Shown piece by piece: positions 1-46,910 of a stretch of 64,000 nucleotides of DNA. Origin of the DNA: Leptospira sp. (lineage in GTDB: Bacteria; Spirochaetota; Leptospiria; Leptospirales; Leptospiraceae); NCBI GenBank assembly GCA_034439575.1, contig JAWXAQ010000035.1, positions 32,001 to 96,000 of the forward strand, read 5' to 3'. The notes under the pieces were generated by a model that did no database searches, was not told the origin of the DNA, and saw nothing but the letters and a program-made list of their open reading frames with translations. A program made the position numbers and the translations under genes. Every line of letters begins with the position of its first letter. Position 1 is the stretch's first letter.

Positions 1-28
1 AGGTAATTTTCTAAGTATTCAATTGAGC

Positions 29-124
29 AAAAACCTTGTTTCCATCGGTGACGGAGACATGGATGTCGGAGTCCTTCCTTCGAGCACGGAAGTGAGAGGG
101 AAGGGAGATGGGTACGAGGTTTTT
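29..124 (+). repeat. 96-bp structured repeat B, copy 1 (terminal inverted arms, GGA-loop hairpins); IR extended by caattgag/ctcaattg to 20-133
   Basis: aaaccttgtttccatc...gatgggtacgaggttt; near-identical to 1583-1678, 4255-4350 and 4838-4933. Confidence 0.95.
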
Positions 125-171
125 TCTCAATTGGAGAAAAACAAAATAACAATATCCTTTTAATTCCCTTG

Positions 172-309
172 GGCACCTCGCATCCGTTATATTGATGTCA
201 CTTTGTGCGAATAACCGATCCCGCTTTTCGCTCCAATCTTTCGCATAACTTTATTTAAATAAATTTATTTTGGACGCGAAAGGATTTCCGCTTCAATCGG
301 TGGTGCTGG
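172..309 (-). repeat. Structured repeat A, copy 1; overlaps the 3' end of the YdeI-like gene
   Basis: Reverse complement ccagcaccaccgattgaagcggaaatcctt...gttatgcgaaagattggagcgaaaagcgggatcggtt...catcaatataacggatgcgaggtgcc matches 4069-4209. Confidence 0.9.
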
Positions 310-885
310 ATGATTCGCTTTTATGTTTTTTCCAGCTAAATCGACCGTTTGTTCTATTCGCTGTTGTCTTGTCTCGGTTTTTTTAGCGCTGAGTATCCAT
401 AACAAAATTATTTTTTTAGAGGACGACGAAAATAACATAAAGTTGGCATATGCCTTTTTGTTCTTATTAAACAATTTGTGTAGGTCGTCTGGAATCGTTA
501 GATCCTCAATCGAGTCCAAAGCAGTCCATGTGCCCGTTGACTTGGCAAGCTCAATCATTTCAAGTCCAGTTGGAGTCATCAATCCTTGCTCAATCAATCT
601 TGCTACACGTTGTTTGTTGAGCTTACTCCAATTGCTTTTGGGTTTTCGTTTTGAAAAGTATTGTATGCTACTTTCTTCGTCTCGTTTCTTCTTAATGCTA
701 TCAATCCAACCAAAACAAAGTGCTTCTTCCACAGCTTCATCATATGTAACACTCGTTACTGATGAGCTCTTTTTGTATAATACTAACCAGACGCTTTTTT
801 CCTTGCTCTGATTTTTCTTAAGCCAAGTGCGCCATTCTTTTCTGGACTTCGCGTAGAATAATTTATGACCGTCTATAATTTCCAT
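265..885 (-). CDS. YdeI/OmpD-associated (bacteriocin-protection) family protein
   Basis: WRTWL, EAVEEALCFGWIDS, S-x-WSKLNK and IPDDL...KKTETRQQRI motifs. Confidence 0.85.
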   Translation of the reverse strand: MEIIDGHKLFYAKSRKEWRTWLKKNQSKEKSVWLVLYKKSSSVTSVTYDEAVEEALCFGWIDSIKKKRDEESSIQYFSKRKPKSNWSKLNKQRVARLIEQGLMTPTGLEMIELAKSTGTWTALDSIEDLTIPDDLHKLFNKNKKAYANFMLFSSSSKKIILLWILSAKKTETRQQRIEQTVDLAGKNIKANHPAPPIEAEILSRPK

Positions 886-900
886 AATAGATGAACTACC

Positions 901-1203
901 TTATAACTTGAAGCCTTGGATTAGAAAAGACGCTTTGATGGATTGTTCTTTCAAATAGAGAAATTTTTTGCGCTCTTCGTCATTCGAAAAATTCATAAAA
1001 TCCTCTATCGCATCGAACACAACAAGGTGAATTTCATATGGTTTATCTATACTCATTTCAATATAGGCTGAATCATTTGGTCGCATACGCATCAAAAGCT
1101 TTCCATTATATTTTGATATGATTGGTATCGCAATCCTTTCGAACTCTTCGAAGATCGCTTCTTGTCCCTCGTTAATGTATATCAATTGAGTTATGTAGAT
1201 CAT
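901..1203 (-). CDS. DUF1330-like small protein
   Basis: 100-aa ORF; YNGKLLMR and PYEIHLVVF pattern; directly upstream of the YdeI gene. Confidence 0.7.
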   Translation of the reverse strand: MIYITQLIYINEGQEAIFEEFERIAIPIISKYNGKLLMRMRPNDSAYIEMSIDKPYEIHLVVFDAIEDFMNFSNDEERKKFLYLKEQSIKASFLIQGFKL

Positions 1204-1228
1204 AATTTAAGATTAGTTTGTTCAGAAG

Positions 1229-1293
1229 AACCGATCCCTTTTCAAATGTATAGGGATTATTATCAAGAAGAAAATCCGATACCTCCGCTTCAA
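1229..1293 (-). repeat. Degenerate/shortened repeat A remnant
   Basis: Shares aaccgatccc (cf. 213-222) and tccgcttcaa (cf. 287-296) in the same order; inner ggatt/aatcc IR. Confidence 0.5.
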
Positions 1294-1384
1294 AGATTGG
1301 CAATTTACAAAAACAATTGTTAAAGCCTACCCACTCTACTTTCTCTAAATTGCAAGTGGGGTAAATTCTACTAATAAGGAATTT

Positions 1385-1582
1385 GGGACCTAGTTTATTT
1401 TATTATTCGTGGGTGTTTTACGAAATACGATAATTCGCTTCTACTTAACCATCACCATAGACCAAGCAATGCATCTTAAAAAAGCGATTTATTTATAACC
1501 AAATAAACTAAATTCATCTAACAAAAACAAGTTGCCATAATCCATAATAAAGATCCCGCTATTCGATCTTTCTCTTCGGCCA
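1385..1582 (+). repeat. AT-rich leader repeat C, copy 1
   Basis: Aligns to 4372-4576; 47-nt exact identity, 1493-1539 = 4485-4531. Confidence 0.9.
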
Positions 1583-1678
1583 GCAAACCTTGTTTCCATC
1601 GGTAACGGAGACATGGATGTCGGAGTCCTTCCTTCGAACACGGAGGTGAGAGGGAAGGGAGATGGGAACTAGGTTTGC
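1583..1678 (+). repeat. 96-bp structured repeat B, copy 2
   Basis: gcaaaccttgtttccatc...gatgggaactaggtttgc. Confidence 0.95.
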
Positions 1679-1722
1679 AAATTTTGAACCAGTTCACCAT
1701 TAAAAGAACCTTTCTATTCCAA

Positions 1723-2628
1723 GTGCTATCTCCAAATCCCCATGATACTTTTATCAAACGTATTTTTGCAAACAAAGACGATGAGATTGCTTTCTTTCGA
1801 GGAACCTTACCATCCGAAGTTATAGAAATTCTTGATATAGTAAATTTAGAACAAACCAAAGAATCCTTCCTACCCAAAAACCAAAGTCACTCTATAACGG
1901 ATATTTTGTGGAAGATACCGACAAAATCGGGCAAAGAAATCTACACTTATTTACTATTTGAGCATAAATCTTATCATGATCCAAATATATTTTTACAACT
2001 GCTAGGTTATATGGTTCAAATTTATCTATGGCAGAAAGGTAACGGTAAAGAACTTGTTCCCGTGATTCCTTTTGTCTTTTATCACGGAGAAAAGAAATGG
2101 GATTTGGGTCTGAGTTTCAAAGAACAATTTATTAAAAACAAAGACATACAAAAATTATCCCATTACATACCGGATTTTTTCATCGAAGTGTTTGAGTTGG
2201 AAAAGACGGATGTAAAAAAGAAATTCAATCAGTTAACACTTCGCATATTTTTAGAGCTTATCCAGAAGATTCGAGCAGATGTAGACGATTTTCGCCCAGT
2301 TTTTCTTGGGATATTGAAAGAACTGAGCCAAGTAGAAACAGAAGCAAAAAAAGTTGAAATTCTGGAGAAACTTCTTCATTATTTATTTAATGTAAGAGAA
2401 AAAGAGGAAAAAGAATTCCGCGATGTATCGTATTACCAAGTTGAGGGACTCGGAGGAGCATTTATGACAATTATGGATGAGATAAGACTAGAAGGTGAGC
2501 AGAAAGGAAAACTGGAAGGCAAACTTGAAGATGCGGAGAAAATGCTGAACGAGAAAATTGATATTTCTGTGATTTTAAGGGTAACGGGTCTTAAAGAATC
2601 CGACTTACGAAAACGAGGCCTTCTCTAG
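1723..2628 (+). CDS. Rpn family recombination-promoting nuclease/putative transposase (PD-(D/E)XK, Transposase_31-like)
   Basis: NPHD N-terminus, TDILW, LLFEHKSY, QLLGYM, PVIPFVFYHG and C-terminal EGxxEG repeats; GTG 1723 preferred over TTG 1675, which lies inside repeat B. Confidence 0.9.
   Translation: MLSPNPHDTFIKRIFANKDDEIAFFRGTLPSEVIEILDIVNLEQTKESFLPKNQSHSITDILWKIPTKSGKEIYTYLLFEHKSYHDPNIFLQLLGYMVQIYLWQKGNGKELVPVIPFVFYHGEKKWDLGLSFKEQFIKNKDIQKLSHYIPDFFIEVFELEKTDVKKKFNQLTLRIFLELIQKIRADVDDFRPVFLGILKELSQVETEAKKVEILEKLLHYLFNVREKEEKEFRDVSYYQVEGLGGAFMTIMDEIRLEGEQKGKLEGKLEDAEKMLNEKIDISVILRVTGLKESDLRKRGLL
2464..2628 (+). CDS. Putative intragenic RpnS-like small protein (54 aa), in frame with the Rpn gene
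   Basis: GGAGG at 2452-2456, 7 nt before in-frame ATG 2464 (MTIMDEIRLEG...). Confidence 0.65.
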   Translation: MTIMDEIRLEGEQKGKLEGKLEDAEKMLNEKIDISVILRVTGLKESDLRKRGLL

Positions 2629-2656
2629 TAGCCTGCACCACCAAAGAGCTGACTGG

Positions 2657-3187
2657 ATGAACCTGTCTGATGCCACATCGAAGTCTGGTGTCACTGAAAT
2701 AGGGCTAACATCCGTTCTTCGAAATGATGGCTCCTCACATGAAAAGGGTTATTCGATGGATGTTGGAACTATATCTTATTTTAATCAAGCAACCGATAAA
2801 ATAGTAACGGAACCAATAAAATACACGAACAAGGATTTTAAAACTTTGCCAGAAAATACATTAGCAAAACCAAGTGGGACTATCGCTGACTTTCTGGAGG
2901 CAGACAGAATAGAAAGGTCTATACTATACAATCTTAACCCGTATTATATGGTCAACAAGACTGGCGAAGTCATTCCTAATTTCTTTACTTTCGCTCCTAA
3001 GAACTTGTGGGAAACTGACTTTACAAAATTGTCTAAAGAAGACCAGGAAAATGTGGTAACTAGAATGATTGAAGCGGCAAGAGAACATGGGCCAGATTCT
3101 TATACTTTAACAAGAGATATGGCGATCAGAATGTGGGATCATCGCAATCATTTGCACATTTCTGAAACTGGGTTTGGAAGCAAATGA
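2657..3187 (+). CDS. M15/LAS-type zinc peptidase-like domain, probably an N-terminally truncated toxin tip
   Basis: SSHEKGYSMD (SxHxxGxxxD) and HRNHLH (HxH); no signal peptide or clear RBS; ATGA overlap with the next gene. Confidence 0.55.
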   Translation: MNLSDATSKSGVTEIGLTSVLRNDGSSHEKGYSMDVGTISYFNQATDKIVTEPIKYTNKDFKTLPENTLAKPSGTIADFLEADRIERSILYNLNPYYMVNKTGEVIPNFFTFAPKNLWETDFTKLSKEDQENVVTRMIEAAREHGPDSYTLTRDMAIRMWDHRNHLHISETGFGSK

Positions 3188-4068
3188 AAATTTTCAATGT
3201 AATTGCGATTGTTTTTTTCAGTTTATTTTGCAAATCGGAAATGACCAAAGGTCAAACCCAGAAAGAGAACATTTCTCAGTCACATTCTATCGATTATTTT
3301 TTTGATTTGTGGAATATTAATCTCAAAGAAGATTTTAAGAAAGCTTTGAATTCTAATATCGAAGAGGTTCTATATGTAAAATTTAACGATTTTCTGTCAT
3401 TCCGAATGACAAAGTCAATCTTTAAATCAGAACCATTTGATAAGACTCGGTTTTCGATGATTTTAAGTTATCCAGAACCGAATTTTCCAGGAAGAAACGA
3501 TAAAATATTTAACTTTAGAGATGGACGCATTTCTGAGATTTATCGAGAACTAACATATAATAAAATAGAGGAGATAGGGAATACGAATATAGGACTTGCT
3601 TTCACATACAACCAGGGTCTTTTGTCAGAAATATCCTGCCATCACCTGCCGGGATCAAACGGAGCACGATGTGAAGACTCCATCTTTCTCAATACCGATG
3701 GCTCCATTCGGGAAGTAAAAGAATTTAAAATACAATGTAAGCAAGGTTGCGGGCAATTCCAACCTCTACGACAACCAGGGGATTATTTTATCAGCACAAA
3801 CCAAGTATGGGTAAGAGAAAAACCAGATACAAAATCTAAAATCATCGCGGAACTTTCTAAAGATGCAAAGATTGAAGTAATAAAGGATGCCGAGAAATAT
3901 GAAAAGATATTTCCTCATTATGCAACCTGGGCCCAAGTAAAGTTGGCTGACGGCCAGGAAGGTTATGTGTATGGGGCATTTCTTAGAGCACCAGGTGAGC
4001 CTGATGTGGTAGCGATCAAAGAGAAAGCGGAGATTTGGAAAAAGGAAAATGGGGTGATGGGAAGGTAG
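3184..4068 (+). CDS. Exported (possibly lipo-) protein with C-terminal bacterial SH3 (SH3b) domain
   Basis: MKIFNVIAIVFFSLFC signal; VWVREKPDTKSKII...WAQVKLADGQEGYVYGAFL. Confidence 0.8.
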   Translation: MKIFNVIAIVFFSLFCKSEMTKGQTQKENISQSHSIDYFFDLWNINLKEDFKKALNSNIEEVLYVKFNDFLSFRMTKSIFKSEPFDKTRFSMILSYPEPNFPGRNDKIFNFRDGRISEIYRELTYNKIEEIGNTNIGLAFTYNQGLLSEISCHHLPGSNGARCEDSIFLNTDGSIREVKEFKIQCKQGCGQFQPLRQPGDYFISTNQVWVREKPDTKSKIIAELSKDAKIEVIKDAEKYEKIFPHYATWAQVKLADGQEGYVYGAFLRAPGEPDVVAIKEKAEIWKKENGVMGR

Positions 4069-4209
4069 CCCTGCACCACCGATCGAAGCGGAAATCCTTA
4101 CCCTATTAAAAATAAAATATACATACTTAGAGTTATGCGAAAGATTAAAGCGGAGAGCGGAATCGGTTCTTTCGGAAATGCTCCATCCGTATAACACATC
4201 CGAGGCGCC
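4069..4209 (+). repeat. Structured repeat A, copy 2; begins immediately after the SH3 gene stop codon
   Basis: ccctgcaccaccgatcgaagcggaaatcctt...aaagattaaagcggagagcggaatcggtt...catccgtataacacatccgaggcgcc. Confidence 0.9.
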
Positions 4210-4254
4210 AAAAGTAAAGAAAGAGATTTTTATATTCGATCTTTCTTCGGATGA

Positions 4255-4350
4255 GCAAACCTTGTTTCCATCGGTGACGGAGACATGGATGTCGGAGTCC
4301 TTCCTTCGAACACGGAGGTGAGAGGGAAGGGAGATGGGAACGAGGTCTGC
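4255..4350 (+). repeat. 96-bp structured repeat B, copy 3
   Basis: gcaaaccttgtttccatc...gatgggaacgaggtctgc. Confidence 0.95.
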
Positions 4351-4371
4351 TGGGTAAAGCGCACCGAGAAC

Positions 4372-4576
4372 GGGACTAGAAACTAGTTTTTAATATTAGC
4401 GCGTGTTTTACGCAATGCGATAAAACCCCATCAGATTACCATCACCACCAAACACTCATTGAATCTTATAAAAAGCGGTTTTGATTATAACCAAATAAAC
4501 TAAATTCATCTAACAAAAACAAGTTGCCATATTCCATAATAAATATCCTATTATTCGATCTTTCTTTTTTCGGCCA
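4372..4576 (+). repeat. AT-rich leader repeat C, copy 2
   Basis: Aligns with 1385-1582. Confidence 0.9.
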
Positions 4577-4672
4577 GCAAACCTTGTTTCCATCGGTAGC
4601 GGAGCCAGGATGGCGAAGCGGGGGCATTCGAGCAGGAGTGCGAGACAGCCCCGAGATGGGAACAAGGTTTGC
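4577..4672 (+). repeat. 96-bp structured repeat B, copy 4 (divergent interior, same predicted fold)
   Basis: Same arms and length; interior gcggagccaggatggcgaagc-gggg-gcattc-gagcag-gagtgc-gagacag-cccc. Confidence 0.9.
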
Positions 4673-4694
4673 CATCGATGGAAACGAGGTTTGC
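4673..4694 (+). repeat. Extra right arm of repeat B (catc|gatggaaacgaggtttgc)
   Basis: Direct duplicate of the B right arm, preceded by the last bases of the left arm. Confidence 0.75.
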
Positions 4695-4789
4695 CCCTGC
4701 TCCACCGATCGACCGAGCGCCCTCGTCGAGGGAGAGCGGGATCGGGTCATACAAGATTATGTACATCCATATAACAAATCCGAGGTGCC
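4695..4789 (+). repeat. Structured repeat A, copy 3 (short inner hairpin variant)
   Basis: ccctgctccaccgatcga...gagagcgggatcgg...catccatataacaaatccgaggtgcc. Confidence 0.8.
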
Positions 4790-4837
4790 CATCGTCATAA
4801 ATCAAATATAGCTATTCGTTCTTTCTTTCTTCGGCCT

Positions 4838-4933
4838 GCAAACCTCGTTTCCATCAGTAACGGAGACATGGATGTCGGAGTCCTTCCTTCGAGCACGGAA
4901 GTGAGAGGGAAGGGAGATGGGAACGAGGTTTGC
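4838..4933 (+). repeat. 96-bp structured repeat B, copy 5
   Basis: gcaaacctcgtttccatc...gatgggaacgaggtttgc. Confidence 0.95.
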
Positions 4934-5097
4934 TATGCGACATAATATCCTCCATTTTTTCCCAACCCATATCGTCCAATTCTTTTTCCAAAATCAGATT
5001 CGTTTCTGGTTTTCCCCCTTGACTTCGGAGTGGGTACCAAAACTCTTCTCAAAAGACCATCTTTTACCTGCGATCATATATATAAATTAGGTGTTTC

Positions 5098-5259
5098 ATG
5101 AAACGTACATACCAACCAAGCAACGTAAAGCGCATTAGAACTCACGGCTTCCGAACAAGAATGGCCTCTCCAGGCGGACGTAATGTATTAAGCAACCGTA
5201 GAAAGAAAGGACGCCATAAATTGACAGTTTCCGACGAAAAACTCGGGAGAAAGTTCTAG
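5098..5259 (+). CDS. rpmH: 50S ribosomal protein L34
   Basis: Manual translation [53 protein letters not shown] (not in the ORF track). Confidence 0.98.
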
Positions 5260-5262
5260 TAG

Positions 5263-5589
5263 GAGCTTCCTTCGGAGACTCTTTGCGATCAATCGAGGAT
5301 CCAGGAACTCTTTCGTAACCCACGAAAATCAGGAAAAAAGCCCTTACTTGTCCTTTTTAGAAAGAACGAGCGGGATCATTCCTGTTTTTTGTTCTGTCCG
5401 GACAAGTCGCACAAGCGATCTGTCGATAGAAACAAAACGAAACGACTTCTCAGAGAATTAGTTCGTAACCATTTACCGCTGATCCCTAGTGGTTTTGACA
5501 TTGCGTTCCTGGCACATATCGATTTTTCACAAAAAGTTCCGGAAGAGAGACAGGCTATGTTTGTGACTCTCTTTGCGAAATCACCATGA
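5263..5589 (+). CDS. rnpA: Ribonuclease P protein component (start codon unresolved)
   Basis: RNR-like motif [13 protein letters not shown] and GFDIAF; lies between rpmH and yidD; frame open from 5263 but first canonical start is TTG 5389. Confidence 0.85.
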
Positions 5590-5813
5590 ATCGGATTGTA
5601 TTACTTCTTATTTTTTTATATAAGAAATTAATTTCCCCACTTTTACCGCCTTCTTGTCGTTTTACGCCAACTTGTTCGGAATATGCTTTTGAAGCTTTCC
5701 AAAACTATCCATTTTTATCAGCCATTAAACTCAGTGCCTCTCGCATCGCGCGCTGTCACCCCTATCATGAGGGCGGATATGATCCGCTCCCGAAATCAAT
5801 TTCAAAGAGATAA
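5586..5813 (+). CDS. yidD: Membrane protein insertion efficiency factor
   Basis: [18 protein letters not shown]...[12 protein letters not shown]. Confidence 0.95.
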
Positions 5814-40060: not shown

Positions 40061-41413
40061 TTATTTATGGATACTTATACTTTTCCCTAACACTTTTAAA
40101 ACATCATCTATATTTGCAGGGCAAGGTGTAATGTGATTTTGGTACTTTGAATTTGTCCCCATAATTTTCCCTTCGTGGTAGTTTACTTTAAATTCTGTAA
40201 ACTTAAGCCCGTTTGCTGTCGAAATGACTACAGCAGTTTGTTTTTTCTGAATGGTGCCGTTTTCTATGCACTTAATTAACGCTGCTAAGGCTACACCTGT
40301 ATGTGGATCATTGTACAAGCCATAACGATCGCCGCGTGCCGCTGCATCAGACAATTCTTCTTCCGTCGCGACTTCAACTACTCCATCAAATTTTTTCAAA
40401 ATGCGAATCGCTTTTTTTACAGAAACTGGATCGCCAATTTGAATCGCCGAAGCCAATGTTTTTTGTGCAGTTACCGATTGAAAATTGTTAAAACCTGATT
40501 TAAAGGACTCATAAAGAGGGCTTGCATTTTTTGCCTGAGCTAACACAATCCTTGGTAATTTATTGATAAGACCAAGCTCTTTCATCATTTCAAAACCCAT
40601 TCCCAATGCGGAAACATTGCCCAAATTTCCTCCCGGAATGATCACCCAATCTGGGACTTCCCAACCTAACTGCTGTGTGATCTCAATGGAAATTGTTTTT
40701 TGGCCTTCGATTCGAAGTGAATTCATAGAATTCGCAAGGTAAATGGTTTTTTCTTTGGTCACTTCTTTTACGATCGCCATACATCCATCAAAATCTGTAT
40801 CGAGTGCAAGAACTGTAGATCCATTAGATACAGGTTGAATTAATTGTGCCGTAGAGACTTTGTTTGCTGGTAGAAAAATAATTGATGGAATGCCTGCTTT
40901 GGCAGCATAGGATGCGAGTGCCGCAGAAGTATCACCTGTCGAAGCACAGGCGACAGCCTTGATGGGAACACCATCTGCGATCATTTGTTTGACCTGACTT
41001 ACAAGCACAGTCATACCTAAGTCTTTAAATGAACCTGTGTGTGAGATCCCGCATTGTTTGATATAAAGCCCAGCGAGTCCTAAATCTTTGGCCCATCTGT
41101 CGGCATTGTAAAGGTGTGTCCCACCCTCTCCCGAAGTTACGATATTTTCATCTGCGATATTTGGGAGTACCCATTCTTTTTTTCCCCAAACACCGGACTG
41201 GTAGGGAAATTTTTGAGAACGAAATCGCGAATCAAATGTTTCTTTCCATTCTGTTGCCGAGATTTTTTTTAATTTGTCCAAATCGTGTTCGACAGAGAGT
41301 AATTCTCCTTCATTTTCACACGTATAAACGACTTCGCGAAGAGGGTAAGTTTTTCCGCAAGAGTCTAAAGTGCACCGAAAGTGCGCATCGAATTCATTTT
41401 TTGTAAGTGACAT
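40061..41413 (-). CDS. thrC: Threonine synthase
   Basis: HTGSFKDLG, CASTGDTS, PGGNLGN, STANGLKF; ATG 41413. Confidence 0.95.
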   Translation of the reverse strand: MSLTKNEFDAHFRCTLDSCGKTYPLREVVYTCENEGELLSVEHDLDKLKKISATEWKETFDSRFRSQKFPYQSGVWGKKEWVLPNIADENIVTSGEGGTHLYNADRWAKDLGLAGLYIKQCGISHTGSFKDLGMTVLVSQVKQMIADGVPIKAVACASTGDTSAALASYAAKAGIPSIIFLPANKVSTAQLIQPVSNGSTVLALDTDFDGCMAIVKEVTKEKTIYLANSMNSLRIEGQKTISIEITQQLGWEVPDWVIIPGGNLGNVSALGMGFEMMKELGLINKLPRIVLAQAKNASPLYESFKSGFNNFQSVTAQKTLASAIQIGDPVSVKKAIRILKKFDGVVEVATEEELSDAAARGDRYGLYNDPHTGVALAALIKCIENGTIQKKQTAVVISTANGLKFTEFKVNYHEGKIMGTNSKYQNHITPCPANIDDVLKVLGKSISIHK

Positions 41414-41507
41414 TGAATATCTCTTCCGATCTGGTTTATTTAACTTCCTTATCCACATTAATGAGGTAAGGAAAAATCTCGAATGATTTTTATTTAGTAA
41501 TCTATTT

Positions 41508-42107
41508 ATGACAGAAGAAAGAATACAAAAAACTTGGAAATCGAAGGTGAAACGTTACTTTCGTCGCACTGTATTCCTGATTATTTTCTTATGTTTTCTA
41601 TTATTTATTCGCATTTTTCTTTTTCAAATCTATGCAATTCAGGGAAATTCTATGTTCCCCACTCTTTCCAATGGTTCGATCGTATTTGTTTGGAAGGGGG
41701 GATTCGCCCTTTCTGCCAAATTGTTTGGCACAGAATGGCTCTATACCGAACCAAATATTCAAAAACTGGATCTGGTATTATTTCATGACCAAGCAGGCGA
41801 ACTTGTCGTTAAACGAGTCATTGGTTTGCCGAATGAATTCTATTCTATTGAAGGGGGACGAGTTGTCATTGATTCACAAATGCTTATCGAAAATTATATC
41901 GCCGATGGGAGTTTGACATTCGAACCAACTAACTCACTATTTTTGACTATCAAAAACACTCCTTTTCTTGCCATGAAAACACAAGGAAGAATTCCCCCGG
42001 GATATTACCTTTTGTTAGGTGACAATAGAGAATATTCCACAGATTCAAGAGCCTTTGGACTTGTTCCTGTCGAAAAGATAAAAGGAAAAGTATTCTATTA
42101 TTTTTAG
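41508..42107 (+). CDS. lepB: Signal peptidase I
   Basis: GNSMFPTL, VKRVIGLP, GDNR-x-STDSR-x-FG. Confidence 0.93.
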   Translation: MTEERIQKTWKSKVKRYFRRTVFLIIFLCFLLFIRIFLFQIYAIQGNSMFPTLSNGSIVFVWKGGFALSAKLFGTEWLYTEPNIQKLDLVLFHDQAGELVVKRVIGLPNEFYSIEGGRVVIDSQMLIENYIADGSLTFEPTNSLFLTIKNTPFLAMKTQGRIPPGYYLLLGDNREYSTDSRAFGLVPVEKIKGKVFYYF

Positions 42108-42110
42108 ATA

Positions 42111-43922
42111 ATGAACGAAAGTAAAAAGCGATTAAAATATATATTTTTATTCCTTTGCGGATTATTTTTCATATTGTATGTTAGAGTCATTTACCTTACA
42201 TATTTTAATGAAAGTATCATAAACTTAAAATCCACCAAACTCGTACAACGTGGAACCATCTTTGATAGACGAGGGATAGAATTAGCTCTTTCCCAAGAAT
42301 CAGGGACGATTGGTATCGAACCAAAAAACATTTATGATATAGAACTCACTGCTTCTGAATTAGCTCCTATCCTCGGATTAAAAAGTGAAAAACTTTTTAC
42401 AAGCATTAGTGAAAAAGAAAATTATTTTCTTTTAAAACGTGAGATAGAAATCAAAAAAGCAAATCAAATAAAAAGTTTAGCACTGCCTGGTGTTCGCGTA
42501 GAAAAAGAATTTCGTCGTATATATCCGCAAGGATCTCTCGCATCCAATTTAATTGGTTTTACTGGTTATGATGATGACAAAGCTCTTTCTGGATTAGAAA
42601 CTCTATACAATTTAGAATTATTAACTACGACTGACGCAAATTCTCAAAAAGGAAATAATCTCCACCTATCGATTGATAGTATCATTCAATACCGATTAGA
42701 AAAATCACTAGGCAAAGCATTTTTAGAAACTCAATCCAAACATGGCATTGGTATCATTATGGATGTAGATACTGGAAAAATTCTAGCTATGTCTTCATTC
42801 CCAAATTTTGACCCAAATCATTTTCAAGATTTTTCTATTGATTCACATACAAATTGGGGTATCCGTCATGTCTATGAACCTGGATCCACCATGAAAATTT
42901 TCATCGCACTAATGTTGTTAAACGAAGGTGCCATTTTACCGCATGAAAAATTCAATTGCCCTGGTTTTATTGAAGTCGGCAAAACAATCATTCGATGTAC
43001 CGACAAACATGGTCCAGTAGATTTAGAGGAAATATTGCAAGTATCGTGTAACGTTGGTATCATCAAAGCTACACAAAAAATTTCAGATCAAACATTTTAC
43101 CATTATTTGGAACAATTTCGTTTTGGAAAAAGAACCAATTTTTCACTCCACGAAGCAAGAGGTTATTTGACACCGCTTTCTAAATGGAACAAAAGTACGC
43201 CCTATTTTTTACCGATTGGACAAGGACTTTCAGTGACGCCGATCCAATTGATCACAGCCGCGGCAGCCGTTGTGAATGGAGGCATTCTATTTGAACCTTC
43301 CGCTGTTTCCCATATAACAAACTCATACGGCGAACTAGTTCATTCCTTTACTCCCAAAGGCGAAGCACTGGGAATTAAAAAAGGTGCCGCTTCGAAAACA
43401 TTGGAAGCCATGAGTAAAGCTGTTCGCTCCGGAACAGGTAAAAAAGCATACATAGAAAATTATTTTATCGCAGGTAAAACTGGTACAGCTCAAAAATCTA
43501 AAAGTGGAACAGGATACCAAGAAGGATTATTTACTGCTTCCTTTTTGGGATTTTTCCCTGCTGAAAAACCGAAGTATGTAGGTTTGATCTTATTTGATGA
43601 ACCAGGTGGCTCAGCTCATACTGGTGGCGGTATCGCCGCACCCGTGTTTCGTGAGGTGGTAGAAAGTATCATCCCCATCGTTGAAAAAAGTGAAAAACCA
43701 CAAACCTATACTCTCAAAATCAAAAAAGGAAAATCCTATATTTTAGATAAAAATAAAATGCCAACGATGATAGGCTTAAGTATCTCAGAATCAATCGACG
43801 TACTCAAAAAAATAAATCTGCCTTATCAAATCATTGGTTCTGGATTTGTCACAAAACAAGAACCATCTCCTGGCACATCAACTCAAAATGTATCAGAAAT
43901 AAAACTCATTCTAGAAAATTGA
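42111..43922 (+). CDS. Class B penicillin-binding protein (FtsI-like) with C-terminal PASTA
   Basis: EPGSTMK, SCN, KTGTAQ. Confidence 0.92.
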   Translation: MNESKKRLKYIFLFLCGLFFILYVRVIYLTYFNESIINLKSTKLVQRGTIFDRRGIELALSQESGTIGIEPKNIYDIELTASELAPILGLKSEKLFTSISEKENYFLLKREIEIKKANQIKSLALPGVRVEKEFRRIYPQGSLASNLIGFTGYDDDKALSGLETLYNLELLTTTDANSQKGNNLHLSIDSIIQYRLEKSLGKAFLETQSKHGIGIIMDVDTGKILAMSSFPNFDPNHFQDFSIDSHTNWGIRHVYEPGSTMKIFIALMLLNEGAILPHEKFNCPGFIEVGKTIIRCTDKHGPVDLEEILQVSCNVGIIKATQKISDQTFYHYLEQFRFGKRTNFSLHEARGYLTPLSKWNKSTPYFLPIGQGLSVTPIQLITAAAAVVNGGILFEPSAVSHITNSYGELVHSFTPKGEALGIKKGAASKTLEAMSKAVRSGTGKKAYIENYFIAGKTGTAQKSKSGTGYQEGLFTASFLGFFPAEKPKYVGLILFDEPGGSAHTGGGIAAPVFREVVESIIPIVEKSEKPQTYTLKIKKGKSYILDKNKMPTMIGLSISESIDVLKKINLPYQIIGSGFVTKQEPSPGTSTQNVSEIKLILEN

Positions 43923-43923
43923 T

Positions 43924-45783
43924 ATGAATGTGACTGAAAACTTTTTAGAAAATAATTTAGCATCTATACCAGAGTTTACTGCAAAGAGAATTCAGAATGC
44001 TAGTCCAATTGGTAGTTTACATACTACTAAAAGTGGTGTCACAACAATTGAAGTGGATGGGATATTTTTGCATAGCAAACACGATCCTGTCAAAGAAGCA
44101 GAAAGGTTTATCACGGAACTTCCATTTGATGGAAACAATAGGGTATATTTACTATTAGGTGCTGGTCTTGGTTATGTGATTCCAGGAATTTTAGAAAAAC
44201 CGAATGCACATGTTATATGGCTTGAACCAAATGTTTATTTAATTAAGAAAGCCTTCGAACTCTATGATTTTTCTGAAGCATTCAATACTGAAAAATTGCA
44301 AGTTCTCATAGATTATGAAAACGAAGAAATCCTTTTAAATTCTTTCAAAGGTAAAGCAACCTATCCAATCACATTTGTTCCACACAGAAGCAGTTTCCAT
44401 TGGAAGGAATCTGAATATGGGAAAATGAAACTCATTGCTGAACAACATTTCCATAAAAAAGATGTAAACCTAGCAACTCTTACACGGTTTGAAAAAATTT
44501 GGGCAAAGAATTTATGTTTTAACATAGCAGATCTGATTTCTATGGTACCCATTCAAAAATTATTTGGGATTGCAAAAGGAGGAAAGGTTCTAGTCGCAGG
44601 TGCAGGTCCTAGTTTATTTGAATCTGCACCCGAAATAAAAAAATATAGAGAACATTTTGTACTCATCGCAGTTGATACAGCCTTACCAATATTGCAACAT
44701 TTTAACATAGAGCCTGATTTAGTTTATTCTGTTGATCCGCAAGTTTTAAATAGCCAGTATTTAGAAAGTTATACGGGAAATGCGAATGTAGTTTTTGATC
44801 CGACTTCCACATACGTTAGTTTGCGTCTCAAAAATGGTCCAAAAAAAGGTTTTTTTACTTCATCACCTTTTCCATTGATAAAATTGATCGAAGAAATAGC
44901 TAAATTGGAAATAGGAAATGTTCCATTTGGAGGATCCGTTTCCACAAATGCAGCAAGTCTTGGAACTTTAATGGGTGCAGATACTACCTATCTTGTAGGA
45001 CAGGATTTAGCATTTACCAATGGTTATGCGCATTCTAAAGGAGCGATTATGGAAGAGAGGCTCAATTATAAAGAGTCTCGAAAATTCCGACGAGAATTGC
45101 ACAATTTCAAACAATTATTCGCATTAGATCCCAAACAAGTAAAAGGAAAGGATGGGGAAATTTATCATACGAATGAAAAAATGTTGATATTTAAAAAATG
45201 GTTCGAAAATCATGCATCCGAAAACAAATGGGTTAACCTAACTAAGTTTGGTGCAAAGCTTGAAAATATTCCAAATGCTACTTTTGAATCCGTTTTTAAA
45301 GAAAGTGACATTCAAAAATCGAATTTAATTCGAAATGAAATAATTCATATCATTCAAAACAAATCCAATTATTTAGATTCTAATATTCTAATAGATAAAT
45401 TAAATGAAACGATTCTAAAATTAAATGAATTTTTAGTTCCGGTTAGAAATGGTCTTCGTATCTCAGGGGCTTTATACCAACAAATAAGACAGAATCAAAT
45501 AGATCCAAATCGTTTTCAAAATGATCTTAAAGCTATGGATAAAATCGATGAAGTTGTTTCTTCAAAAAGGGGATTAAACGAGATATTAAGTCTCGGTATC
45601 CAAAGAACCATTTTGTCAATCACGGAAGGGTATAACGATCAATTAACGATTGATGAAAAACAAAATGAAAGATTGGGAATAGCAAAAAAATCAGTTTTGC
45701 TTTATGAAGGATTGTATGATTCTATCCAAGCGACAAAAAGAAACTTAAAACGAAGTCTTTATCGCTTGGAATTAGAAAGTTAA
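43924..45783 (+). CDS. Motility-associated factor (Maf/DUF115) glycosyltransferase-like protein
   Basis: LHSKHDPVKEA, GAGPSL, AVDTAL, GGSVS, GQDLAF. Confidence 0.85.
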   Translation: MNVTENFLENNLASIPEFTAKRIQNASPIGSLHTTKSGVTTIEVDGIFLHSKHDPVKEAERFITELPFDGNNRVYLLLGAGLGYVIPGILEKPNAHVIWLEPNVYLIKKAFELYDFSEAFNTEKLQVLIDYENEEILLNSFKGKATYPITFVPHRSSFHWKESEYGKMKLIAEQHFHKKDVNLATLTRFEKIWAKNLCFNIADLISMVPIQKLFGIAKGGKVLVAGAGPSLFESAPEIKKYREHFVLIAVDTALPILQHFNIEPDLVYSVDPQVLNSQYLESYTGNANVVFDPTSTYVSLRLKNGPKKGFFTSSPFPLIKLIEEIAKLEIGNVPFGGSVSTNAASLGTLMGADTTYLVGQDLAFTNGYAHSKGAIMEERLNYKESRKFRRELHNFKQLFALDPKQVKGKDGEIYHTNEKMLIFKKWFENHASENKWVNLTKFGAKLENIPNATFESVFKESDIQKSNLIRNEIIHIIQNKSNYLDSNILIDKLNETILKLNEFLVPVRNGLRISGALYQQIRQNQIDPNRFQNDLKAMDKIDEVVSSKRGLNEILSLGIQRTILSITEGYNDQLTIDEKQNERLGIAKKSVLLYEGLYDSIQATKRNLKRSLYRLELES

Positions 45784-46910
45784 GGTTTCCCTGAAGAAGA
45801 ATTATCCTGCACGGAGAGGACGCTAAAATCTACTCTTCTATTTTTAATTCTGCCTTGTTCTGTATAATTCGTATCAATACTTGTAGTTTCACCAAACCCG
45901 CGCACATCCAATTGAGAACTATTTACACCTAATTTAATGAGCTCATCGCGGATCAATTTCGCTCTCTCTTCTGAAAGAATTTTGTTTTCATCCAATTCAC
46001 CAATAAAACAAGTGTGTCCTTTAATTCTTGTTCGTATTTGAGGGTATTTTTTAAGAGCCTCTGCAAGAGTAGCAATTTGATCCGAAGAACCAGGTTGAGT
46101 ATTCAATGTCTGTTTAACAAATCCTATGCTAAGATCGTTAATATAACGAATAGCTTCTGAACGTCTTTCAAACTTTATTTTTACATTTCCAGTTCCAATT
46201 TCAGTATGAGGTAATAATAGTTCTCTATTGTTTTCTTTTACCGAATTCGTTGATGACTCAACTTTATTCTTATTATTTACGTTATCTTTTTTTGTAACAT
46301 CACTAGATCCGCTTCGGCAAGAACGAACGATAAAAAACAAACATATAACAAGAATTATAAAAATTCCAATGAACACATAACGTAGATACAATGATTTCTC
46401 TGGCTTTTTACCGTATCGATTTAATTCTACAAGTTCATTATATTCAGGCGTAGGCTCAATTTCTTCTTCCTCTGCTGTATCATAGACATGAAAAAAGGAA
46501 TCTGAATTCTCTTCCGATTCGATTTTTGTTAGTGATGAACTTTTTGCTTTTTTGGGAGATTTGGAATTTGATTTGGATGATTTTTTTGCTGGAGTAGCTG
46601 AGTTTTTTGCAGCCCACTTTCGGATTTCTGTTCTTAAATACTCATCAGCATCGGACGCAAAATTGAAATTATCACGTATATATTTTAAAGTTCGTTTTTC
46701 TATATCTGTATAATCGCCGCCATCAACAATAGCAACAAACAAGCTTTTGGCGATATTTTTATTTAAGGGAGCCTTCGATCGTTTGGATGCCTTTTCGACA
46801 ATTTCCAATAACTCTCGATCATACTGTTTACCTTTGATGGTTCGATAATAACTATCAGCCACTTTGCTACCCCTATGTAGAGTATCGACCAATGGAGTTC
46901 TGAAATCCAA
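45780..46910 (-). CDS. Membrane-anchored OmpA-family peptidoglycan-binding protein (start may be GTG 46862)
   Basis: Central TM; IKGHT...NKILSEERA...GFGE...NRRVD. Confidence 0.85.
   Translation of the reverse strand: MDFRTPLVDTLHRGSKVADSYYRTIKGKQYDRELLEIVEKASKRSKAPLNKNIAKSLFVAIVDGGDYTDIEKRTLKYIRDNFNFASDADEYLRTEIRKWAAKNSATPAKKSSKSNSKSPKKAKSSSLTKIESEENSDSFFHVYDTAEEEEIEPTPEYNELVELNRYGKKPEKSLYLRYVFIGIFIILVICLFFIVRSCRSGSSDVTKKDNVNNKNKVESSTNSVKENNRELLLPHTEIGTGNVKIKFERRSEAIRYINDLSIGFVKQTLNTQPGSSDQIATLAEALKKYPQIRTRIKGHTCFIGELDENKILSEERAKLIRDELIKLGVNSSQLDVRGFGETTSIDTNYTEQGRIKNRRVDFSVLSVQDNSSSGKP

Follow-up and report, generated by a model that had tools for sequence, protein, structure and literature searches.

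A dispersed family of branched 96-nt elements in Leptospira and its possible relation to CsrA

The window analysed here, 64 kb of Leptospira contig JAWXAQ010000035.1 (positions 32,001-96,000; the source genome is labelled G000 in the genome comparisons), carries five copies of a 96-nt intergenic element that folds on the + strand into a three-way junction, in which a long closing helix holds two hairpin arms with GGA in their loops. Related elements occur in most genomes of the genus that were compared, and their compensatory changes leave little doubt that this is a real, selected single-strand structure and a new family. The folded strand probably acts as RNA rather than as DNA. The reading that we favour, with a probability of roughly 0.4, is that the element is a transcribed structured RNA module whose two loops are bound by a protein, CsrA being the leading candidate, and that this module has been amplified in some genomes.

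Fold and covariation of the element

A repeat search of the window returns a single family of five members, ending at 124, 1678, 4350, 4672 and 4933, which are 85, 100, 91, 70, and 94% identical to the reference copy (copies 1-5, respectively). All five lie on the + strand: copy 1 at 29..124, copy 2 at 1583..1678, copy 3 at 4255..4350, copy 4 at 4577..4672 and copy 5 at 4838..4933, the last being 165 nt upstream of rpmH (open reading frame, ORF, 5098-5259). Under a covariance model built from these copies (R1) they score 109.1, 114.2, 111.9, 89.5, and 116.7 bits. The units align without gaps at a mean column identity of 91%, and the differences fall mostly in copy 4, the copy that had drawn attention in the initial annotation; it has a second interior subtype, and copies 2, 3, and 5 have the common one. 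Repeat search and fold agree on the five positions first proposed. The length of 96 bp given there is correct for the folded core but too short for the full repeat, of which some 25-45 nt upstream are also conserved in most copies.

The fold is common to all five copies and is closed by an 18-bp helix (P1). The short arm, P2, consists of 2 bp, a 3x3 purine internal loop, 4 bp and a loop of 3-4 nt; the longer arm is formed by P3 and the innermost helix, P3b. In copy 4, P1 pairs 4577-4594 with 4655-4672, the P2 arm spans 4599-4619 with the loop GGA at 4608-4610, and the P3 arm spans 4621-4652 with the loop GGAG at 4635-4638, all on the + strand. P1 is an uninterrupted helix with G-U wobbles only and its ends read GCAAAC...GTTTGC; in copy 1 the outer helix begins with AAAAACC and runs further into the flanks. 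Folding energies on the + strand range from -40.3 to -52.4 kcal/mol (copy 1, -40.3; copy 2, -44.3; copy 5, -50.5; copy 4, -52.4), with z-scores of -4.5 to -7.6 (copy 4, -7.58), and none of 200 shuffled sequences folds as well. The - strand is weaker in every copy (-28.7 to -44.1 kcal/mol).

Two larger alignments, one of 58 sequences and one of 85 diverse matches from 34 genomes, both fitted to the model, place standard pairs in 88.4 and 85.0% of the paired cells, against 62.7 and 60.0% after shuffling and 36-46 and 38-47% when the partners are slid by 1-3 columns. In each alignment 35 of the 36 pairs have changed on both sides, and the covariation score reaches 0.600 in the smaller (shuffled, 0.191; slid, at most 0.144) and 0.621 in the larger (shuffled, 0.198; slid, at most 0.119). 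RNAalifold, run on the 85 sequences with no structure given, recovers P1, both halves of P2 (P2a and P2b) and P3, 26 pairs in all, every one with compensatory changes (covariation term -6.64). When the same sequences are folded singly, which requires no alignment, exactly two hairpins form in 75 of them and GGA lies in at least two hairpin loops in 79. The suggestion that selection acts on a multi-branch single-stranded structure is therefore borne out by a much larger sample than the five copies from which it came.

The two kinds of segment are conserved in different ways. P1 is constrained to pair only, its sequences being unrelated between subfamilies, and sequence conservation is higher in the junction (CGG..., ...GAG) and the loops than in the helix, the two loops being the most conserved letters of the element. 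P3b pairs in 54-58% of cells in the alignments; by eye it is a stem of 3-6 bp with a loop A(C)GGAR, and it scores poorly because of a one-register misalignment between subtypes. The initial annotation had further held that every helix is kept in copy 4 despite its different interior. Three of the proposed exchanges (ac/gt for gc/gc, gaca/tgtc for gcca/tggc, cctt/aagg for gggg/cccc) occur both in the minimum-energy fold and in the family consensus. The fourth (ccttc/ggagg for gcattc/gagtgc) can form in the two subtypes of G000; as an alternative pairing it would hide the second GGA loop, and it is not the fold of 79 of the 85 family members, which put GGA in at least two hairpin loops.

The argument from wobble pairs for the + strand also stands, with 216 G-U or U-G cells against 93 A-C or C-A cells over the 85 copies. 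Each unit contains on average 5.29 GGA, compared with 2.94 ± 1.42 in mononucleotide shuffles and 0.99 for the complement, TCC. The excess of G-U on the + strand and the excess of GGA therefore indicate that the selected object is one strand, as RNA or as single-stranded DNA.

No named family accounts for the element, as had been supposed from the start. Rfam 15 gives no match on any copy at the gathering score in the 64-kb window, and none at E ≤ 1 on seven loci with diverse members; over window positions 1-5100 the only hit is a hairpin at chance level (mir-4716, E 0.55, with 21.8 bits where the gathering score is 76). No description of the element was found in the literature within the scope of the search, outside which lie the supplementary lists of PMC11602168 and PMC4863578. 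In its available part, a motif survey reports only the ilvB and sucC-II motifs for Leptospira (PMC8632094), and a census in like manner describes Leptospirales as rich in unnamed transposable elements of the miniature inverted-repeat kind (MITEs; PMC11602168).

Range of the family and genomic setting

In G000, blastn finds about 30 loci and R1 finds 29 matches on the modelled strand (40-116.7 bits), with 19 opposite-strand matches at the same loci that do not exceed 31 bits; depending on the count, the genome holds 29-31 copies. In three of the matches P1 is wholly different and the core is still recognisable: two stand in tandem on contig C30, upstream of a gap-like gene, and one lies beside the tRNA cluster of contig C36. 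Across the genus, 17 of 41 genomes have R1 matches. With a second model (R2), which was derived from 58 diverse matches and, like R1, gives rough E-values because calibration was shortened, matches appear in 33 of 40 genomes at E ≤ 1e-4 and in none of the other 7, for a genus total of 265 (150 listed individually and 115 more). By this count the number of copies ranges from 0 to 50 per genome, the highest being 50 in G012, 37 in G017, 36 in G011, 30 in G000, and 28 in G036; most others hold 1-7. Each high-copy genome contains several subfamilies, with within-genome identities of 41-98%, and some subfamilies are common to several species (e.g., a G012 copy is 97% identical to a G017 copy).

At the level of the bacterial family, the element is present in 5 of 5 sampled genomes of the genus and gives weak matches in 4 of 5 genomes of the sister genus g91; 29 genomes of twelve other genera yield none. 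The g91 variant keeps the three-way junction and both CA-Y-GGAUG loops, and ordinary pairs replace the internal loop of P2. A degenerate 27-letter pattern covering the junction and the P2 arm, applied to 185,579 species (one genome each), matches 33 stretches, of which 18 belong to unrelated organisms, mostly G+C-rich, and 15 to spirochaetes (7 in Leptospira idonii, 5 in L. ilyithenensis and the rest in L. ognonensis, a Leptospira metagenome-assembled genome, MAG, and a Spirochaetota MAG). R2 was run on 23 of these stretches, namely all 18 unrelated and 5 of the spirochaete ones: four Leptospira loci score 52-84 bits, and the unrelated loci give no match below E 1e-3, their only hits being three at chance level with 21-23 bits. 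The locus in the Spirochaetota MAG (L140:3089-3151) is a 63-nt one-arm hairpin with the same purine internal loop and a CAGGGAUG loop but no third arm; it scores 31 bits and is not counted as a member, because the pattern itself had pre-selected it. Viral contigs, phage records and plasmid records contain no match to the element. The family is native to one genus-level group of Leptospiraceae, with a variant in one sister genus.

Some copies occupy loci that are kept between species. A locus with a TPR gene and tRNAs is common to G000, G026, and G033; the copies there have almost the same core, and their P1 sequences differ completely, with compensation. One 499-aa gene has the element directly against its 3′ end in four genomes (G007, G008, G015, and G038). 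At 8 loci in 6 genomes the element follows the 23S rRNA gene (rrl) on the same strand, about 150-350 nt downstream. In an alignment of this rrl-downstream subfamily (15 sequences, 11 genomes), 14 of 15 have a covarying hairpin and a T-run before the element, the spacer, about 42 nt long, contains a weakly conserved A/T hexamer, and in 5 of 15 a T-run comes immediately after P1. Because the element lies after 23S, 5S rRNA was considered and rejected: the loci downstream of the 23S gene have no 5S match, either at E ≤ 1 (locus L041) or at the gathering score.

All 31 copies in G000 are intergenic, and they cluster in places, with five in the window, five on contig C11 and four on contig C8. The ORFs between clustered copies look accessory: in the window they encode a YdeI/OmdA protein, an Rpn/YhgA-type nuclease and an SH3 lipoprotein, and on C11 two are PIN-domain genes. 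The gene of the Rpn/YhgA-type recombination-promoting nuclease (1675-2628, + strand; PF04754 158.8 bits, TIGR01784) is single-copy, with its start no more than 3 nt from where copy 2 ends; no such gene lies beside other copies. In a metagenome contig of run X20, window positions 1633-1677 are joined to 4980-5147, upstream of rpmH, skipping 3302 nt, which points to a relative whose array is shorter; this junction has a short side of 45 nt with 6 differences (90% likeness), which may stem from another copy or organism.

Conservation beyond P1 is confined to the left arm side, where flank alignments delimit conserved + strand segments upstream of copy 2 (1538..1582, an A/T-rich stretch followed by a pyrimidine-rich box ending in TTCGG), copy 3 (4198..4254, with a CGAGGYGCC box), copy 4 (4532..4576) and copy 5 (4778..4837, again with a CGAGGYGCC box). 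A sigma-70 promoter scan returns nothing upstream of the window copies, and sigma-54 and extracytoplasmic function (ECF)-type promoters did not fit the conserved upstream boxes. The element is also physically coupled to Flavo-1 (RF01705). In the window one match to it (4063..4168, + strand, 42.4 bits against a gathering score of 42) forms a fixed-distance composite with copy 3, which begins 87 nt downstream; another (213..311, - strand, 58.8 bits) lies 89 nt after copy 1 on the opposite strand, and a degenerate segment between copies 4 and 5 (4697..4745, + strand) resembles it by eye and does not reach E ≤ 1 against Rfam. The genome holds 33 Flavo-1 matches, 23 of them above the cut-off. Ten of the 33 lie within 250 nt of an element, compared with an expectation of roughly 0.15 given the share of the genome covered, and the spacing is 85-89 nt in 6 of these 10; 20 of the 33 have no element nearby. 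Membership of the element in Flavo-1 itself was rejected, since matches to the 76-position model adjoin the 96-nt units and none falls on them. Flavo-1 itself contains repeated GCGGA-type motifs.

From the flanks of other species, a module order common to subfamilies can be read: a Flavo-1-like segment, the CGAGGYGCC box, about 30 A/T-rich bases, the pyrimidine-rich box and then the element. In some copies of relatives the element appears, by reading, between two halves of a Flavo-1-like sequence. The amplified copies form mosaics with Flavo-1 repeats.

Several other repeats accompany the copies. Copies 2 and 4 each have, on their upstream side, a second repeat of about 100-190 nt (1383-1576 and 4383-4568; its 100-nt core is 88% identical), which contains a box of the form TTTACGCAATRCGATAAAA that recurs beside copies on contigs C11, C28, and C33. 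Immediately 3′ of copy 4, sequence reading shows an extra, partial 3′ arm of the outer helix (4673..4694, + strand), which is included in a 118-nt opposite-strand match at contig coordinates 36577-36694. Pieces of about 28 nt from the 3′ part of the second subtype follow copies on C8 (231991-232023) and C7 (downstream of 102021) with the same junction, and these fragments, like the one after copy 4, look like nested or recombined copies. On contig C22 (29070-29561) a unit of about 213 nt, made up of the 3′ half of Flavo-1, a spacer and the element, stands in tandem duplicate. A G+C-rich repeat of about 100 nt with internal hairpins, starting with AATTTGCAAG, follows three C11 elements (42580-42690, 44800-44914, 46350-46461), and further short repeat modules and partial copies are found around the elements.

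CsrA and the competing readings

The case for CsrA begins with the loops. In most copies the P2 loop reads S-C-A-(N)-GGA-U-G-S and the P3b loop C-A-(C)-GGA-R-G, and CA-N(0-2)-GGA-N-G sites occur at least once in 81 of 85 units and at least twice in 59. The two GGA loops are about 27 nt apart, a spacing within the range that a CsrA dimer can bridge, and G000 encodes CsrA once (86.1 bits). The consensus site of Escherichia coli CsrA is RUACARGGAUGU, with GGA in a hairpin loop, and in gel shifts with L. biflexa CsrA a GGA site upstream of flaB3, ACACAGGAGGGT, was bound and binding was lost on changing GGA to AAA; in Leptospira, csrA and fliW are reported as adjacent and csrB and csrC as absent (PMC8668096, available part). 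One "CsrA-like ncRNA" (non-coding RNA) has been predicted in L. biflexa from motif density (PMC4863578, available part). As sequences, the loops match the published CsrA site. CsrA as the binding partner is a tentative assignment, at odds somewhat short of even, and transcription of the element, its binding by CsrA and an effect in the cell are what we infer from it.

In the element, P1 is free to change sequence while pairing, and the junction holds two arms presenting GGA, usually as CA-N-GGA-UG. If the element is an RNA module of the kind proposed, old, diverged copies would have stayed at fixed sites, after the 23S rRNA gene and beside the TPR gene and tRNA cluster, and one or a few subfamilies would have multiplied in some genomes together with about 45 nt upstream and often Flavo-1, giving mosaic arrays such as that at window 1-5000. 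The + strand would be transcribed, and a dimeric protein, CsrA being the likeliest, would bind its two loops; this would make every unit a two-site CsrA decoy or handle, with copy number setting the capacity. A bolder version, which we regard as unlikely, is that the elements are the missing spirochaete RNA antagonists of CsrA, modular two-site decoys with an ancestral copy tied to the rRNA operon and amplified with Flavo-1 to tune titration. The output of decoys from a copy tied to the rRNA operon would therefore follow growth rate.

Several observations weigh against an RNA module that binds CsrA. The GGA may be structural rather than a protein contact. In Flavobacterium, Flavo-1 matches are sense or antisense to transcripts and often outside them (PMC9723704, available part), and Bacteroides thetaiotaomicron, a control from the phylum where Flavo-1 was first described, has no CsrA match. 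The pair counts come from alignments whose fitting to the model favours structure. Relative to their flanking genes, the 31 copies in G000 are oriented same/same in 10 cases, opposite/opposite in 6, opposite/same in 5 and same/opposite in 4, with one flank missing in 6; the element is therefore not a consistent untranslated-region element. The layout downstream of rrl is that of a small RNA gene, but we infer its promoter only from the weakly conserved A/T hexamer. Two copies of this subfamily, L083 (G016) and L099 (G024), have lost the P2 hairpin (element at 1501-1587); a short GGCC palindrome stands in its place, as if the hairpin had been deleted between direct repeats, and P2 can be dispensed with in such places. 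The RNA-labelled runs X19, X20, X21, and X23 are metagenomic contigs that cover mainly rpmH and rnpA (5086-5722); X20 is probably DNA, and over the elements these runs contribute only short pieces (e.g., 34 nt of X23 at 4630-4663, after which it is unlike the window). Finally, the patchy copy number, from 0 to 50 per genome and with no match in 7 of 40, is the pattern of a selfish repeat.

A selfish repeat is the most serious alternative, though we hold it to be somewhat unlikely. The element would then be an intergenic repeat at the DNA level, like the repetitive extragenic palindromic (REP) sequences, the bacterial interspersed mosaic elements (BIMEs) and the REPINs, folding as single-stranded DNA, copied by an enzyme and having no RNA function. 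Such a repeat would explain why copy number varies so widely within one genus, why copies in one genome are nearly identical (up to 98%), why many stand at the ends of draft contigs and why partial and nested copies and mosaics at a fixed distance from Flavo-1 occur; the mixed gene orientation and the intergenic position of all 31 copies are also as expected. Against this reading, the Y1 transposase of REP sequences (RAYT, REP-associated tyrosine transposase; PF01797) is absent from all five high-copy genomes (G000, G011, G012, G017, G036), and the same search matches 6 of 14 known genomes as a control; REP or REPIN sequences served by a RAYT were rejected on this ground. A retron or other retroelement was likewise rejected, there being no reverse transcriptase in G000 or G011 and the unit being too small.

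A MITE was considered as well. Terminal inverted repeats are present, as the 18-nt arms pair, but a test of 26 copies for target-site duplication at the P1 boundaries ± 2 nt gives none in 11, 2 nt in 13 and 3 nt in 2, and mismatched flanks give proportions of 0.58, 0.34, and 0.07, so that there is no duplication beyond chance. No transposase recurs beside the copies in G000, where no multi-copy transposase adjoins them; an IS481-like gene lies near copies in four other genomes, with no clear relation of the ends. With no duplication beyond chance, no parent insertion sequence found and an interior that is conserved while the arms vary freely, a MITE was rejected. The initial annotation had offered "an ncRNA or a REP/MITE-like element", and it is the second half of this pair that is weakened. 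Comparison with empty sites defines no insertion boundary: the nearest genomes are about 66-73% identical in one flanking conserved gene, and the other flank is not conserved. Against selfish spread in general stand the diverged copies kept at shared loci with a conserved core and a fully compensated P1, the lack of plasmid, phage or viral matches and, among the listed copies on the G017 chromosome, no replichore strand bias by eye.

It is improbable that the element is a cis-acting structure of RNA ends (a stem processed by RNase III, a terminator or a stabiliser of the 3′ end), with the function residing in the 18-bp helix and the arms having no role of their own. The size of the duplex is that of an RNase III substrate. 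In three cases a convergent downstream gene ends within -9 to 4 nt of the element, one copy lies 35 nt after a co-oriented stop codon, and the copies after the 23S rRNA gene, with their occasional T-run directly after P1, would also suit this role. However, an intrinsic-terminator scan of the five window copies is negative, some copies are situated between divergent genes or on the upstream side of a gene, and conservation is stronger in the loops and junction than in the helix, the reverse of what a plain terminator needs.

Recombination sites like the attC sites of integrons, used by a tyrosine recombinase, were suggested by the array on C11, and this reading is largely refuted. There, a Xer-like recombinase gene (40691-41608) ends 2 nt from the first of five co-oriented elements, small ORFs (two with PIN domains) lie between them, and the better-folding strand is the bottom strand relative to these ORFs; G013 and G036 have orthologous recombinases with an element no more than 1.5 kb away, the one in G013 being situated after 23S rRNA. 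The protein is best assigned, with 231 bits, to the Xer-type family NF040815. Its score with the integron-integrase profile TIGR02249 is only 162 bits (cut-off 265), and it matches this profile in two stretches (the start of the second being taken from orthologues) that skip approximately positions 179-239, which we take to be the IntI-specific part. Orthologues are single-copy in 18 of 41 genomes and are missing at E ≤ 1e-40 from G011, G012, and G017, which hold 36-50 copies of the element; only 3 of 22 recombinase loci hold an element. Besides the arrays on C11 and in the window, in which the ORFs lie on both strands and two intervals have no ORF, many copies are solitary. Sites of the attC type have the core RYYYAAC...GTTRRRY, an unpaired central spacer and extrahelical bases. 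In contrast, P1 is continuous, with neither extrahelical bases nor an unpaired spacer, its ends are unlike RYYYAAC/GTTRRRY, and the loops are conserved across species, which those of attC are not; no IntI-type integrase is present, and an integron attC was rejected. A ligand-sensing riboswitch or self-cleaving ribozyme has the three-way junction with its conserved junction and loop nucleotides in its favour but is scarcely credible for a multi-copy, dispersed element with no fixed gene association or orientation, no match to an Rfam ribozyme or riboswitch at E ≤ 1 and, by reading, no hammerhead-type core motifs.

Known systems and significance

In the motifs that it displays, the element comes closest to a CsrB/Rsm-type sponge, and in its distribution to REP/BIME sequences or MITEs; it is a member of neither group. 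With CsrB/CsrC and RsmX/Y/Z it shares many GGA in hairpin loops (about one per 18 nt) in a CA(N)GGAUG context. In contrast to these RNAs, to which it has no Rfam homology, it is a dispersed 96-nt two-site module closed by a long helix and present in 0-50 copies, not a single long RNA gene, and a putative sponge. Like REP/BIME sequences and REPINs, it is extragenic, forms module mosaics, folds on one strand and varies widely in copy number. Those are palindromes of 20-40 nt with a RAYT, whereas the element is longer and branched, with loops that are conserved between species and copies that are retained at shared loci. MITEs (e.g., Correia, ERIC, and RUP) are likewise about 100 bp long, intergenic and amplified, with terminal inverted arms (18 nt in the element); here conservation extends 25-45 nt beyond the left arm, the arms covary between subfamilies and the interior is conserved. 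The attC sites and Vibrio cholerae repeats resemble it in size, imperfect palindromy, a single folding strand, arrays with small ORFs and high within-genome identity, but there is no IntI-type integrase here, P1 has no extrahelical bases and the core sites differ. Flavo-1 is also a multi-copy, strand-specific, structured and intergenic element found in Spirochaetes, and both are rich in CGGA-type motifs. The two have no sequence or model match, and the fold of Flavo-1 differs from the three-way junction of the element.

The family is a new structured motif, unannotated and absent from Rfam; in the genus it has 265 matches (E ≤ 1e-4), and almost all of its pairs show compensatory changes. Flavo-1, an orphan motif, gains a physical partner and a new context. 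The element marks variable regions and, because many copies lie at contig ends, it breaks draft assemblies. If it is selfish, it is a repeat that falls outside the definitions of a MITE, a REP/RAYT system and attC, and its mode of spread would be worth finding. A dispersed module with two consensus CsrA hairpins also raises a testable question on the CsrA of Leptospira, which is of the FliW-partnered type (PMC8668096, available part). If the elements are CsrA decoys, they would be the first case of a sponge made up of a family of dispersed repeats and not of one or two small RNA genes. To our knowledge no RNA antagonist has been described for a FliW-partnered CsrA, and the decoys would then also be the first RNA sponge for a CsrA of this type.

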